Shown one piece after another: positions 861 to 13,835 of a stretch of 15,668 nucleotides of DNA. The stretch is from Deferrisomatales bacterium (GTDB taxonomy: Bacteria > Desulfobacterota > Deferrisomatia > Deferrisomatales > JACRMM01). Below the pieces are notes generated by a model. That model saw only the letters and a program-made list of their open reading frames with translations, was not told the origin of the DNA and did not search any database. Where the stretch lies: the NCBI GenBank assembly GCA_033551855.1, contig JAWSUI010000076.1:1-15668 (forward strand), in the 5' to 3' direction. Position numbers and translations under genes: made by a program. Each line of letters opens with the position of its first letter. Within the stretch, counting starts at the first letter, position 1.

Positions 861-2492
861 CTACTTCTTCGCCAGCCCCGCCAGGGCCTCGTCGAGAATC
901 TTCAAGCCCTTCAGGCTCTCGTCCACGGAGCGGGTCAGGGACTCCCGCGCCAGGTCCGGGTTGTGGAAGCCGTCGGAGTTCTCGGCGGTCCAGTACTCCC
1001 AGAGGATGTGGGCCCTCATGTGCTGGTCCTGGGCCTGCGTGACGGCGTTCTCCGCGACCCCCTTCTTCTTGGCCTCGACGATCCGGTCGATGAGTTGGTC
1101 GAGCCAGAACTCGGCCTTGCGCATCTTGCCCTTGAAGTAGGCCTTCACCGAATCGATGACGTAGTGGGCCTGCTCCTCGTCCCAGTCGCCGTGGCACCGC
1201 AGGCAGGTGTCGCCGAGCATCACCTTCGGCGTGGTGGCGAAGTGGGAGGTGTGCTCCTTCCCCGTCTTGAGGCTCCTCACCTTGGGCGAGTGGCAGTCGT
1301 CGCACTGGACGCCCGCCCGTGCGTGCTTGGAGTTGTAGTACGTTTCCGCCTCGGGGTGCTGCCCCTTCCACAGGAACCCCCCGGTGAAGGAGTTCTTGAA
1401 GTCGAGGAAGGCGATCTGATTCACATAGTGCTCATAGAGCCCGAGCACGTCCTTGTACGGGAAGTGGTTGGTGCGGCGATCGGCCATGGTGACCCGCTCG
1501 CCGGTCTTGGCGTCGGTGCCCGGGTTGCAGTTGTACTCCACGTGGCACTGCCCGCACTGGAGCCGGGAGTCGTACTTCTCGAGGAGCGCGATCTTGCGGG
1601 TGTAGCCCCGCACCCCCATGTCGATCACCTGGATCTTCGTGCGGTCGGGGTCGTTGTGCCACAGGGTGTCCGCCTCCGGCCGCGTGAGGGCGTCGATGAG
1701 GCCGTCGCGCACCACCCGGGGCTTCGCCGCGTGGGGGTCGTGGCAGATGAAGCAGTTGAGGCCGTGCTGGATGGTGCGCGCGACCTCCACCGGGTTCGAG
1801 GCCCGGGACCACTTCGCCCCGACGTCCGGGTCGCCCATGTAGGCCCAGTCGAGGATCTGGTCCTGGCTCTTGCACTGGAAGCACACGGGGTTGGCGGCCG
1901 CGGCGGTCTGTGGGAGGAACGCCTTGTGCTCGGTGGTGTCGGGGAAGCGGTCCTCCAGGTAGTCCCAGGTCTTCTTCCCGGCCGGCTGGGCCACGTACTG
2001 CCAGCCCTCCTTGGGCTGGAACCGCCCCCCGAAGGCCCGGTCGACCACGAACTGGTCCACCACCATCCAGGGGTGGCTGCGGGTCAGGGCGTGCTCCTTG
2101 GTGAAGCCGTGGCCCGCCATGAGCTTGTCCCAGAAGGGGTTGGGAGACCGGTTGGTGAGCTGGCTCTTCTCGTCGCGGGCGGGCCGGTGGTACGAGGTCT
2201 CGAGGAAGCTCTCGAGCTGCTCTTCGTGACACGCCCCGCAGGCGTACCAGGAGAGGTCGGTGACGGGCCGGGTCGCGGCCCCGGGGTCCTTCAGGTGGGC
2301 CTGGAGGCCCGCGTGGCAGGCGGTACAGTTGACCCCGTCGTGCTTCGAGCCCTTGTGGAGCGACTCGATCACATCGTGGCACTCGTAGCACGCCCCCACC
2401 GCCACGGCGGGCTCAGAGGCGCCGGCCGCCAAGGGGGCGCCGGCAAGGCCAACCACTCCCAGGATCGTCCAGAATCGTCGCAACGTTCCCAT
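861..2492 (-). CDS. Octaheme cytochrome c nitrite reductase (ONR, TvNiR-type; ammonia-forming cytochrome c552 family), 543 aa with signal peptide
   Basis: Heme motifs CYECH, CTACH, CGACH, CFQCK (Lys-ligated active-site heme), CFICH, CGQCH, CDDCH, CLRCH. Also CHVEYNC, KGQHPE and ENSDGFHNP. Start moved to ATG 2492, which follows a GGAGGAGG RBS and begins a Sec-type signal MGTLRRFWTILGVVGLAGAPLAAGA. Confidence 0.92.
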   Translation of the reverse strand: MGTLRRFWTILGVVGLAGAPLAAGASEPAVAVGACYECHDVIESLHKGSKHDGVNCTACHAGLQAHLKDPGAATRPVTDLSWYACGACHEEQLESFLETSYHRPARDEKSQLTNRSPNPFWDKLMAGHGFTKEHALTRSHPWMVVDQFVVDRAFGGRFQPKEGWQYVAQPAGKKTWDYLEDRFPDTTEHKAFLPQTAAAANPVCFQCKSQDQILDWAYMGDPDVGAKWSRASNPVEVARTIQHGLNCFICHDPHAAKPRVVRDGLIDALTRPEADTLWHNDPDRTKIQVIDMGVRGYTRKIALLEKYDSRLQCGQCHVEYNCNPGTDAKTGERVTMADRRTNHFPYKDVLGLYEHYVNQIAFLDFKNSFTGGFLWKGQHPEAETYYNSKHARAGVQCDDCHSPKVRSLKTGKEHTSHFATTPKVMLGDTCLRCHGDWDEEQAHYVIDSVKAYFKGKMRKAEFWLDQLIDRIVEAKKKGVAENAVTQAQDQHMRAHILWEYWTAENSDGFHNPDLARESLTRSVDESLKGLKILDEALAGLAKK

Positions 2493-2632
2493 GGTCCTCC
2501 TCCTTCCTCCTCTCACAGTGCTCCTCGCCATCCCCCCCGGGTCATCCGACGCGGGCGGTCCCAGCCGTACCTCCTTTCGCGCCGCCCGTGCTTGCTCTCA
2601 CGTTCACGATCCTTTCCGGTTCTTCCGGTAAG

Positions 2633-2787
2633 CGACCGGGTGGGCCCACCCCCTCCGGCGGACGACGCCGGGCTGCACGGTAGGTGCGCTCCCGCGCCGC
2701 ATCCGGAACCCTCGCGGCATCGCGGCTCCCGAAGGGGCTGCTTCCGTCGAGCGGCCGTCCGCCTGCGTGGCCGGGCCCACCCGGTCG
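2633..2787. repeat. 155-bp element with perfect 15-bp terminal inverted repeats (MITE/REPIN-like or structured RNA)
   Basis: CGACCGGGTGGGCCC (2633-2647) pairs with GGGCCCACCCGGTCG (2773-2787). Inner stem GGCGGACG (2657-2664) pairs with CGTCCGCC (2756-2763). Confidence 0.7.
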
Positions 2788-2851
2788 TCCCTGGACACGA
2801 GTACCCGGTCATTTCCCGGATGCACCTCTTTTCCAGGGCCAGACACCCCCA

Positions 2852-2895
2852 CCCTCACCCCGGCAGCCCCCTTCCGGGTGGAGAGGGGGGGTCGG
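2852..2895. repeat. BoxC-like palindromic repeat overlapping the 3' end of the MetE-core gene
   Basis: CCCTCACCCCGG...GGAGAGGGGGGGTCGG aligns by eye with 10644-10685 (CCCTCACCCTGG...AGAGTGGGGTCGG). Confidence 0.5.
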
Positions 2896-3937
2896 AAGGG
2901 GTCTCGTCTCCCCACAGGCCGTACCGGTCGCGCACCCGGCGCGAGAGCTCCCGCAGGAGCTCGTAGCAGGCCTCCACGGTGGCGGTCTTGTCGGGGTTCA
3001 CCAGGGCGCAGGTCGCCGGGAGGAGGAGGCTGCGGGGCAGGAGCTCCTCCCGCCGCAGGCCGCCCTGCTCGAGGGTGTCCCACAACCCCTCCAGGTGGTC
3101 CAGCAAGCCTTGGAGGTCCGAGGCCCGAAACTCGTCGTAGTTGGCCGGGACGATCCCCCACCCCACCACCCCGCCGCCGTCCAGGAACCGGCGCAGGCTC
3201 GGGATGTAGTTGACGAAGCGGTCCCCCCGGCCGAAGGCGTTGAAGGAGAGCACGTCCATGGGGGTGCGCAGGAGGAAGTCCCAGTCGGGGTTTCCGCACA
3301 GGTGCACGCCCCGCTTGCCTTCGACCAGGGAGAAGAAGTGGTCCAGATCCTCCCGGGCGCGCTCGTCGCTGTACCCGGAGAGGGACGAGAAGATGAACTC
3401 CAGGCCGGGCTCGTCCACGAACATGAAGGCGTTGGGGTTCTTGGCGGCGAGCTCCTGGCCCATCACCGTGACCTTACGGGCCATGAAGTCCAGCAGGAAC
3501 GGGCGCACCTCGTCGCTGTAGATCAGGGGGCAGTCGTTCTCGTCCTTGACGCTGAAGCCGAAGGAGATCGGCCCCTCCACCTGCCCCCGGACGGCGACGT
3601 ACCCGGAGAGGTCGAGCTCCAGGAACCGGTGGTAGACGACCGAGTAGCGCGCGGAGAGGCGGTAGAGCTCGGGGTCCTCCAGGCGGGCGACGAACTCCTC
3701 CAGCTCCGCGTAGAAGCGCTCGGTGGAAAAGTCGATGCGCTGGTTCTCCTCGTCGATCCGGACCCCGGGGAAGTTCTCCGAGACCTGGACGTACATGTCC
3801 TCGTAGTAGGACAGGCGCGGCAGCTGGGGCCAAAAGGGGATGTCGAGGGACAGGGCCAGCTCCAGCGCTCGGTCGGCGTCGGTGTGGGGCAGGATGCCCA
3901 TGGCCGTGGTGCGGCAGTTTCCCGGGATGGGGAGCAT
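2855..3937 (-). CDS. Single-barrel MetE-like methionine synthase (core-MetE, MesB/MesC-like; UROD/MetE superfamily), 360 aa
   Basis: Motifs DIPFWPQLP, GQVEGPISF, FVDEPGL, Zn-ligand HLC (GVHLCGNPDW), WGIVP, and a C-terminal Cys in PATCAL. About half the length of full MetE, lacking the N-terminal barrel. Confidence 0.8.
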   Translation of the reverse strand: MLPIPGNCRTTAMGILPHTDADRALELALSLDIPFWPQLPRLSYYEDMYVQVSENFPGVRIDEENQRIDFSTERFYAELEEFVARLEDPELYRLSARYSVVYHRFLELDLSGYVAVRGQVEGPISFGFSVKDENDCPLIYSDEVRPFLLDFMARKVTVMGQELAAKNPNAFMFVDEPGLEFIFSSLSGYSDERAREDLDHFFSLVEGKRGVHLCGNPDWDFLLRTPMDVLSFNAFGRGDRFVNYIPSLRRFLDGGGVVGWGIVPANYDEFRASDLQGLLDHLEGLWDTLEQGGLRREELLPRSLLLPATCALVNPDKTATVEACYELLRELSRRVRDRYGLWGDETPSDPPSPPGRGLPG

Positions 3938-4027
3938 GGAACCTCGCGCAAGCCGTGGGGTCGAGCGTCGGTCGCCGCGGAGTATACCCCCACAGGGAGA
4001 CTCCGCTACCGGCCGGCGTCAAGCCCC

Positions 4028-4056
4028 TTGGAGAGGGGTGCGGTTGGAGCTAGGAT
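4028..4056 (+). promoter_or_regulatory. Putative sigma70 promoter of the proteasome-like gene
   Basis: TTGGAG (4028-4033), 17-bp spacer, TAGGAT (4051-4056), ending 37 bp before ATG 4094. Confidence 0.45.
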
Positions 4057-4093
4057 GGCTAGAAGAGCCTCGGCGGTGCGGAGAGGATCGGGG

Positions 4094-4726
4094 ATGTCAC
4101 AGCTCGTGGCCTGCTGCTTCCCGGGGGGCGTGCTCCTGGCGGCCGACCGCCGGGTGGCGGTGGAGCTCCGGGGGGAACCGCAGGTCCACTCCGTGCGCAA
4201 GCTCTTTCTCCTGGGCTCCACCGCCGCAGTGGCCACGAGCGGCGCCGCGGTGGGGATCGCCGTGAGCCGAAACCTCCACCGCTTCTTCCGGGGACGGGCC
4301 TCTCCCCACTTGGAGGACCTGGACGCCTACGCCCTCTCGGTCTTCCAGAAGGAGTACCGGGAGTTCGTCCGCCAAGGGGAGAGCTGGTTCCGCATCAACC
4401 CGTACGCCCACCGCCTCTCCTATGTCCTCCTCGCGGGGTGCGAGGGCACGGGGGCACACACGTTCCGCTTCCACGCCTCCGAGGCCCACCACGAGCCCTA
4501 TCGGCTCCTGGCCACCGGCGCGGTCCTCACGGCCCCCCGGAGGCTCGGCCTGGAGGCCCGCCTCGGTCGGGCCCTGGCGGAGGGGACCGGGGGGGACGCC
4601 CTGGTCGCCCTCGTCCTGGAGGGGCTGCGGGTGATCGGGCGGAAGGAGGAGGCGGTGGGCCCGCCCTTCGACTGGTGCCTCATCCGAGGGGCGGGGGCGA
4701 CGGAGGGAACGGAAGAAGGGGGATGA
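4094..4726 (+). CDS. Proteasome beta/HslV-like Ntn-hydrolase-fold protein with N-terminal Ser, 210 aa
   Basis: MSQLVACCFPGGVLLAADRR...RKLF...ATSG...YVLLAG matches the proteasome beta pattern: nucleophile at 1, GVLLAAD17xR19, a Lys near 33-35, a Gly near 47-49, and an LLAG strand. GGAGAGGA RBS precedes ATG 4094. This is the real part of the 2684..4726 ORF. Confidence 0.78.
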   Translation: MSQLVACCFPGGVLLAADRRVAVELRGEPQVHSVRKLFLLGSTAAVATSGAAVGIAVSRNLHRFFRGRASPHLEDLDAYALSVFQKEYREFVRQGESWFRINPYAHRLSYVLLAGCEGTGAHTFRFHASEAHHEPYRLLATGAVLTAPRRLGLEARLGRALAEGTGGDALVALVLEGLRVIGRKEEAVGPPFDWCLIRGAGATEGTEEGG

Positions 4727-13591: not shown

Positions 13592-13638
13592 GGGCCCGGA
13601 GGGCCCTGCAGGGGGGCGGGTGATGGGTCGAGAGGTGT

Positions 13639-13722
13639 CCTGCTTCCCTACGCCGGCATTACCCGGGTCAGGTTCCAGGGGTCGTCCCGGTCGGGACTCT
13701 CAGCGCACGCGCCCCCAGCAGG
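13639..13722 (-). ncRNA. TPP (thi-box) riboswitch
   Basis: Minus strand reads CCTGCT-GGGG-GCGCGTGCGC-TGAGA-GTCCCGACCGGGAC-GACCCCTGGAACCTGACCCGGGTAATGCCGGCGTAGGGA-AGCAGG. The UGAGA, ACCUGA, UAAU and GCGUAGGGA motifs and the P1 stem are all present, upstream of thiamine genes. Confidence 0.97.
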
Positions 13723-13835
13723 GTTCCCTACTCCTCCGAGAAGAAGCTTGGGTGCTGCATCATGGGATCGGTCTCCTTCGTCGGGCCGGCGAGAGCCCGC
13801 GTCTACCGCCTTGGTAACCCATCGGCCCCTGCCCG

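Follow-up and report, generated by a model that had tools for sequence, protein, structure and literature searches.

Does a small gene of a Deferrisomatales bacterium, whose product resembles the beta subunit of the proteasome and begins with serine, encode a protein ligase, a protease, or something else? The gene lies in a stretch of 15,668 nucleotides (contig JAWSUI010000076.1 of assembly GCA_033551855.1), referred to here as the window. A first-pass annotation, made from the sequence alone, described a proteasome-beta homolog with Ser1 and offered it as a candidate Connectase-like ligase or a new Ntn enzyme family. The features that define the gene are as follows.

4094..4726, plus strand: gene for a proteasome-beta-fold Ntn protein of 210 aa (P0001), probable PHD family (see below), Ser-Asp-Lys branch; based on translation, homologs, predicted fold, and third-position bias
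4080..4087, plus strand: Shine-Dalgarno-like word GGAGAGGA, separated by 6 nt from the ATG at 4094, with counterparts at 15/17 related loci

The gene and its start site

Positions 4094 to 4726 (+) are a real gene. Third codon positions carry most of the differences from four relatives (39 of 64 in the comparison with relative L001). A longer open reading frame of 680 aa listed at 2684-4726 is read as the proteasome-like gene plus the antisense shadow of its opposite-strand neighbor, because GC3 drops from 0.92 in the proteasome-like gene to 0.68 in the upstream stretch; the minus-strand gene itself has a GC3 of 0.96. The translated product starts MSQLVACC, and with residues numbered for the mature protein, Met removed, it reads S1, Q2, D17-R18-R19, K35, G49, LLAG (111-114), and A146-P147-R148-R149, in agreement with the motifs listed in the first-pass annotation. 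A scan for promoters and terminators found none.

Shine-Dalgarno-like words precede the same start in related loci, in-frame residues 5′ of the ATG are unconserved among them, and three of these loci have an in-frame stop as near as 6 to 8 codons upstream of the ATG. The protein should therefore carry Ser at its N terminus without a propeptide, as had been proposed, and the same upstream comparison rules out a longer N terminus or propeptide. One relative, L013 (G304:C11:14394-15006), has its copy of the gene broken into two frames near the 5′ end, reflecting either a frameshift or a sequencing error.

A proteasome-like fold closest to Anbu and 20S beta subunits

The Pfam Proteasome model barely detects the protein (E of 0.15), and TIGR03690 scores 17.6 bits where its cut-off is 191.9. 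An AlphaFold2 model built from 69 sequences (pLDDT of 94.5) has a beta-sandwich core, flanking helices, and the nucleophile in register, with residue 2 of the model matching residue 1 of mature Anbu and 20S beta chains, so that structure comparison recovers the proteasome-beta fold on which the earlier reading depended. When the predicted model was submitted to Foldseek, all matches among those listed were 20S subunits. In VIA-align comparisons the best match was Anbu (PDB 5LOX and 5NYW; Z of 20.4, rmsd of 2.8, 194 residues, and 17% identity with 5LOX), tied with 20S beta chains at a Z of about 19 to 20, while HslV (Z of 13.7) and BPH (Z of 13.2), members of the same fold family, matched less strongly. 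Predicted helices H1 (53-65) and H2 (73-94) are followed by a short extra helix (96-101), H3, and H4; S3/S4 is a plain hairpin (20-33), H5 is absent, and the model ends in strands at 192-198 and 201-207.

Anbu likewise has no propeptide and has its Met removed by MAP; however, it carries Thr1 rather than Ser1 and a C-terminal H5 coiled-coil helix where the model ends in strands, its operon of transglutaminase, ATP-grasp, and alpha-E genes is not found at the loci compared, and the profile match to it is weak (probability of 30%). The fold and the D17/K35/G49 register are shared with 20S beta subunits (profile probability of 92% over 189 columns), but Ser1, the missing propeptide, Arg for Ser129, Val for Ser169, the low TIGR03690 score, and a genome in which no alpha subunit or Pup ligase was found all set the protein apart from them. 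The HslV profile matches weakly and only over its N-terminal 61 columns, and there is no hslU partner; the true hslV adjoins hslU on another contig.

Active-site residues and a family signature

The residues that can be aligned with the proteasome active site, and those that distinguish the family, are the following.

4097..4102, plus strand: Ser1, which Met removal is predicted to expose as the N-terminal nucleophile, followed by Gln2; Ser in 82/82 near homologs, Gln2 in 88/88 Lys-type members
4145..4147, plus strand: Asp17, triad acid; 87/87 near homologs
4199..4201, plus strand: Lys35, equivalent of proteasome Lys33, putative general base; 92/92 near homologs, Arg in 99/172 distant ones
4241..4243, plus strand: Gly49, equivalent of Gly47, putative oxyanion hole; 263/264 overall, 92/92 near homologs
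4478..4489, plus strand: loop Ser128-Glu129-x-His131 following strand S6, characteristic of the Lys type; W-x-K/R in other members
4535..4555, plus strand: Pro147-Arg148-R-L-G-L-Glu153 signature, occupying the Gly128-Ser129-Gly130 site in the model register; P, R, and E each in 264/264
4646..4648, plus strand: Glu184, probable Asp166 equivalent in the register of the profile alignment; D or E in 86/92 near homologs

Near homologs are the 92 sequences with at least 40% identity, of which 10 have gaps at position 1 and 5 at position 17. Conservation of Ser1, Asp17, and Lys35 had been named as a check on the annotation, and all three are invariant in this set wherever a residue is present; with G49, they supply the triad (Ser/Thr1-Asp17-Lys) and Gly47 equivalent of proteasome-like family members. 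In the proteasome itself the triad is Thr1-Lys33-Asp17, a Thr1Ser mutant remains an active protease, and Lys33Arg inactivates yeast beta5 (PMC4792962). The same work describes Ser129 and Asp166 as tuning the N-terminal amine, a second triad essential for efficient proteolysis (PMC4792962).

It is at this second site that the family departs most from the proteasome. By eye, GSG (Ser129) had seemed to be replaced by APRR, and the strand-loop-helix order of the model agrees, setting PRRL where 20S beta has GSGG, with P-R-R in place of G-S-G and R148 at the Ser129 position; a low-confidence part of the profile alignment places the PRRL stretch differently from the model. The GSG equivalent which that part suggests, ATGA, is rejected because it is unconserved and because the model has VLTA as the strand before H3. 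In the profile alignment register V187 replaces proteasome Ser169, and the C-terminal VGPPF lines up with the VGLPI/LGPPI words of other homologs. Signature counts refer to 264 sequences of 180 to 260 aa; in an overlapping larger set P147, R148, and E153 occur in 445, 444, and 445 of 445 sequences. Family-wide, P147, R148, E153, and G49, rather than the nucleophile or lysine, are the most conserved residues. Since Ser129 and Asp166 serve amine tuning in the proteasome and Arg148 stands at the Ser129 position here, the alignments suggest that the second relay was rebuilt in this family, with invariant Pro147-Arg148 and Glu153 in place of Ser129. With Arg at the Ser129 position, catalysis may turn over slowly or differ in kind. 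Departure from GSG is not unique, as two Anbu-like genes read GEH and GAS there.

Comparison with Connectase

The proposal of a Connectase-like enzyme rested on the statement that Connectase uses Ser1, which holds for some species; in others the nucleophile is Thr1, and other studied homologs usually have Thr1 (PMC7980362). This protein shares with Connectase (PF09894, DUF2121; PDB 6ZW0 and 8JTU) an Ntn core without propeptide or ATPase, and its Ser1 is as in Methanocaldococcus jannaschii Connectase. However, Connectase lacks H1/H2 and binds its substrate through a two-helix S3/S4 insertion (PMC8665760, PMC7980362), whereas this bacterial protein has both helices in the model and a plain S3/S4 hairpin, with a D17-K35 spacing of 17 to 21 in 256 of 257 sequences. 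These two structural hallmarks rule out Connectase membership, and the structural match (Z of 11.5, rmsd of 3.2, 142 residues) is far weaker than that to Anbu or 20S beta. No Connectase Pfam match was found in the genome from which the window comes, and one of 49 family members matches weakly (E of 0.019). Among 88 non-redundant Lys35 members Ser1 alternates with Thr1 (54 Ser and 34 Thr). Given this alternation, the use of either residue by Connectase, and the continued protease activity of the Thr1Ser proteasome, Ser1 is unusual but not diagnostic of a ligase, and nothing in the protein points specifically to a protein-joining enzyme.

Distribution and assignment to the PHD cluster

Sequence search found 75 close homologs, and a length-unrestricted search returned 61 representatives at the 50% level (97 to 250 aa), none of them fused to other domains. 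A profile of distant members enlarged the family to at least 1,335 proteins from the former Deltaproteobacteria, with named members in Deferrisoma, Desulfobacca, Desulfobacterales, and Syntrophobacteraceae. Within the window's order the gene is present in 19 of 21 genomes, including 13/13 good-quality ones, as a single copy, and the window's own genome has one. Other families of genomes carry it in 59/61 (f12) and 28/55 (f14) cases, and in a sample of the phylum it was detected in 34 of 301 genomes at an E of 0.001 and in 31 of 301 at an E below 1e-20. Phage records and viral contigs gave no match to the family, nor did models of defense systems.

Fuchs, Alva, and Lupas reported 22 uncharacterized clusters of proteasome homologs in 2021, one of which was named PHD, for Proteasome Homolog of Deltaproteobacteria (group II, representative OGP72033.1, 55 sequences at nr90) (PMC8665760). 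According to that report all 22 are without a conserved partner gene, ATPase included, and its list of clusters bearing long insertions, coiled coils, or additional domains does not include PHD (PMC8665760). The family studied here is very probably PHD. Full-length sequence links from the family to proteasome subunits (E of 1e-4), the matching range, and members with nr accessions (OPX19709.1 and RLA89594.1) make this identity likely; both accessions presumably predate the 2020 search behind the cluster. The range is mainly Deltaproteobacterial, in a survey that stayed within one phylum. The build is that of group II, with no long insertion, propeptide, or extra domain, and the proteasome-like fold and the uninformative gene context are shared as well. 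OGP72033.1 (KEGG OC.1959503) is absent among the members listed for 30 clusters (at most 15 each, of at least 1,335), and the PHD description in PMC8665760 makes no mention of the P-R-E signature or of paired Lys-less paralogs. The suggestion of a new Ntn family is thus probably wrong, as a Deltaproteobacterial homolog cluster had already been named. The literature searched beyond PMC8665760, in which subscription journals were mostly uncovered, yielded no PHD study, no activity data for the family, and no function for any of the 22 clusters.

Other proteasome-like genes occur in the phylum. L243 (G003:C65:361-1002 +) encodes an orphan 214-aa Ser1 protein that lacks a Lys33 equivalent and occurs in 1 of 301 genomes; L240 (G088:C2) encodes another orphan of 236 aa with Thr1 and GSG kept; and L205 to L209 (G048, G002, G026, G020, and G205) resemble true bacterial 20S beta subunits, present in a few genomes of the phylum.

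Genomic context

Upstream and divergent lies a 348-aa gene (2858-3901, minus strand) with no Pfam family at an E of 0.001, and beyond it a cytochrome c552 gene; degQ is downstream and convergent, and an Hsp20-like gene lies 3.5 kb off within the window. Of the order's 18 loci, 12 include the 348-aa gene, which is directly divergent in 11, and 6 include degQ. In other families the neighbors are unrelated (glucanotransferase, amylase, ABC exporter, and Mur ligase genes), and no conserved partner gene or operon, ATPase included, was found across the loci compared. The 348-aa neighbor was rejected as a dedicated partner and is read as local synteny, because its family occurs in 184 of 301 phylum genomes compared to 34 for the proteasome-like family. 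It is 79 to 95% identical in most of the order and often present in two copies per phylum genome; its product may resemble a methionine-synthase/UROD-like TIM barrel.

The first-pass annotation had pointed out that genes for an alpha subunit, HslU, the Pup system, or Anbu-type partners are missing nearby, and none was seen in the window; in the genome as a whole, neither an alpha subunit nor a Pup ligase was found, and hslVU is present. With conserved Ser1/Asp17/Lys35 and no conserved partner genes, its description of a stand-alone, noncanonical proteasome-like Ntn protein stands.

Elsewhere in the window, the c552 gene (861-2531, minus strand) encodes a multiheme, NrfA-like cytochrome (PF02335) with additional N-terminal heme motifs and shares synteny with the 348-aa gene within the window's family. 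A TPP riboswitch (13628-13726, minus strand; Rfam RF00059, 74 bits) precedes a thiamine gene cluster that includes thiC. In one genus only, a transglutaminase-like gene (PF01841; L003:6661-7278, minus strand, also L002 and L008) directly follows the family gene convergently, which recalls the Anbu operon but on the other strand.

Branches and paralog pairs

A midpoint-rooted tree of 127 non-redundant sequences, built after rows that lacked the N-terminal residue or exceeded 72% identity had been dropped, contains an all Ser-Asp-Lys clade that includes the window's protein (n = 45, SH-aLRT of 99.8), a weakly supported, mainly Thr-Asp-Lys clade (n = 34, SH-aLRT of 73.1), and a clade without Lys35, nearly all Arg35 (n = 37, SH-aLRT of 93.7). 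All 88 non-redundant Lys35 members have Asp17 with Ser or Thr at position 1. Among non-Lys members, position 1 is Gly, Ala, or Asn in 8 of 39, and Pro in some genome copies. The loop after S6 also differs, with W127 in 35/39 and K/R129 in 36/39 non-Lys members versus S128 in 82/88 and E129 in 76/88 Lys-type members. A single-sequence fold of one Gly1/Arg35 paralog was uninformative (pLDDT of 36).

Complete-triad copies are paired with unlinked copies lacking Lys35 in 46 of the 49 genomes from which at least two copies were retrieved (families f12, f14, f81, and f44), and the partners have different neighbors. These counts include kin and do not represent independent genomes; fragmentary extra matches (e.g., G326, G355, G362, and G386) were left out, and several single-copy f12 genomes were left out of the copy-type count. 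Of the other three multi-copy genomes, two carry a pair of Lys copies (one being a contig-end fragment), and in the third the second copy is an unclassifiable fragment. A typical pair, as in G051 (L052 and L053) or G246 (L054 and L055), joins a Thr-Asp-Lys copy with an acidic S-E loop to a Gly/Ser/Ala-Asp/Glu-Arg copy with a basic W-x-K loop. Of 49 genomes with one retrieved copy, 31 have the Lys type and 18 the non-Lys type, and genomes of the window's order carry the Ser-Asp-Lys type alone. A single old duplication can account for the pattern; either an active/inactive two-subunit arrangement or a pair of distinct functions would fit it.

Proposed mechanism and alternatives

The preferred reading, to which we give an even chance, is that the protein is a cytoplasmic, ATP-independent, narrow-specificity N-terminal-serine amidohydrolase. 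It would act as a peptidase or amidase and belong to group II of the proteasome-like proteins, most likely to PHD. Methionine aminopeptidase, which follows a small-residue rule, would free Ser1, as reported for Anbu. From the conservation pattern and the proteasome mechanism, Lys35, oriented by Asp17, would activate the Ser1 hydroxyl for attack on an amide carbonyl, Gly49 would provide the oxyanion hole, and water would by default resolve the acyl-enzyme ester. Pro-Arg, Glu153, and Gln2 may hold the N terminus in place of the Ser129 relay, and the Arg148/Glu153/Gln2 set could form an anion site for one substrate, for example one that has a carboxylate close to the bond to be cleaved. Because H1/H2 and the S128-E129 loop are kept, the sequence and model suggest that the protein probably works as an oligomer. 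The amidohydrolase reading is favored by the fold and N-terminal register, the co-conservation of the triad, the activity of the Thr1Ser proteasome, the single copy beside a separate hslVU, and the lack of a partner ATPase. Counting against it are an entire branch with Arg35, the very substitution that inactivates yeast beta5 at Lys33, the stronger conservation of P147, R148, E153, and G49 than of the nucleophile or lysine, and the Arg in place of Ser129, part of the second triad that efficient proteolysis by the proteasome requires.

One alternative is a nonproteolytic core role, in which the free N-terminal amine, Gly49, and Arg148 would serve ligand binding or a scaffold and the triad would be incidental, slow, or single-turnover. 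The Arg35 branch (37 of 127) keeps P-R-E and Gly49, many of its members have Gly, Ala, Pro, or Asn at position 1, and 18 of the 49 genomes with one retrieved copy have only the Arg35 type; however, many of these Arg35-only genomes are 70 to 95% complete, and Ser1/Asp17/Lys35 invariance in the window's branch, down to about 40% identity, argues for catalysis there. We consider such a role unlikely for the family. A sequence-specific transpeptidase or protein ligase of the Connectase kind, which would shift the acyl group from the Ser1 oxygen onto the amine of Ser1 and then to a second peptide while avoiding water, is a still less probable proposal. Without the Ser129 relay the N-terminal amine could have a lower pKa and attack more readily, an effect described for the D166N mutant (PMC4792962), and the absence of a propeptide and ATPase partner and the strongly conserved pocket would suit a ligase. 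Against this stand the missing substrate-binding two-helix lid, the retained H1/H2, a Connectase alignment 142 residues long where that to Anbu covers 194, the near-absence of Connectase Pfam matches, and the use of both Ser and Thr in this family and in Connectase.

A self-compartmentalizing ring or split ring acting in general quality control, like BPH, Anbu, or uncapped 20S, would fit the presence of H1 to H4 without a long ring-blocking insertion, the oligomeric nature of the best structural neighbors, and the nearby degQ and Hsp20-like genes. Yet degQ is convergent and found in a minority of the order's loci, the genome already has hslVU, and very high pocket conservation with Arg at the Ser129 position fits a specific substrate better, which leaves a general protease quite improbable. 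Doubtful to a similar degree is a new active-site system split into catalytic and noncatalytic subunits that co-assemble, with the catalytic one alone in the window's order and acyl transfer possible. The catalytic subunit would then be the Ser/Thr-Asp-Lys type with its acidic S-E loop and the partner the Arg35 type with its basic W-x-K loop; the split would be independent of the 20S alpha/beta pair, and Arg would replace the Ser129 relay.

Implications

The encoded protein is probably, from its sequence, an active, stand-alone relative of the cutting subunit of the proteasome, and the gene is most likely one more member of a catalogued, functionally uncharacterized family. An earlier proteasome homolog, Connectase, proved to be a useful protein ligase. 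Its intact triad, its place in the core gene set of the order, and the invariant Arg that stands in for proteasome Ser129 make this gene a good test case, and the pairing of triad-complete with Lys-less copies turns into a testable question how active/inactive pairs such as beta/alpha arise.
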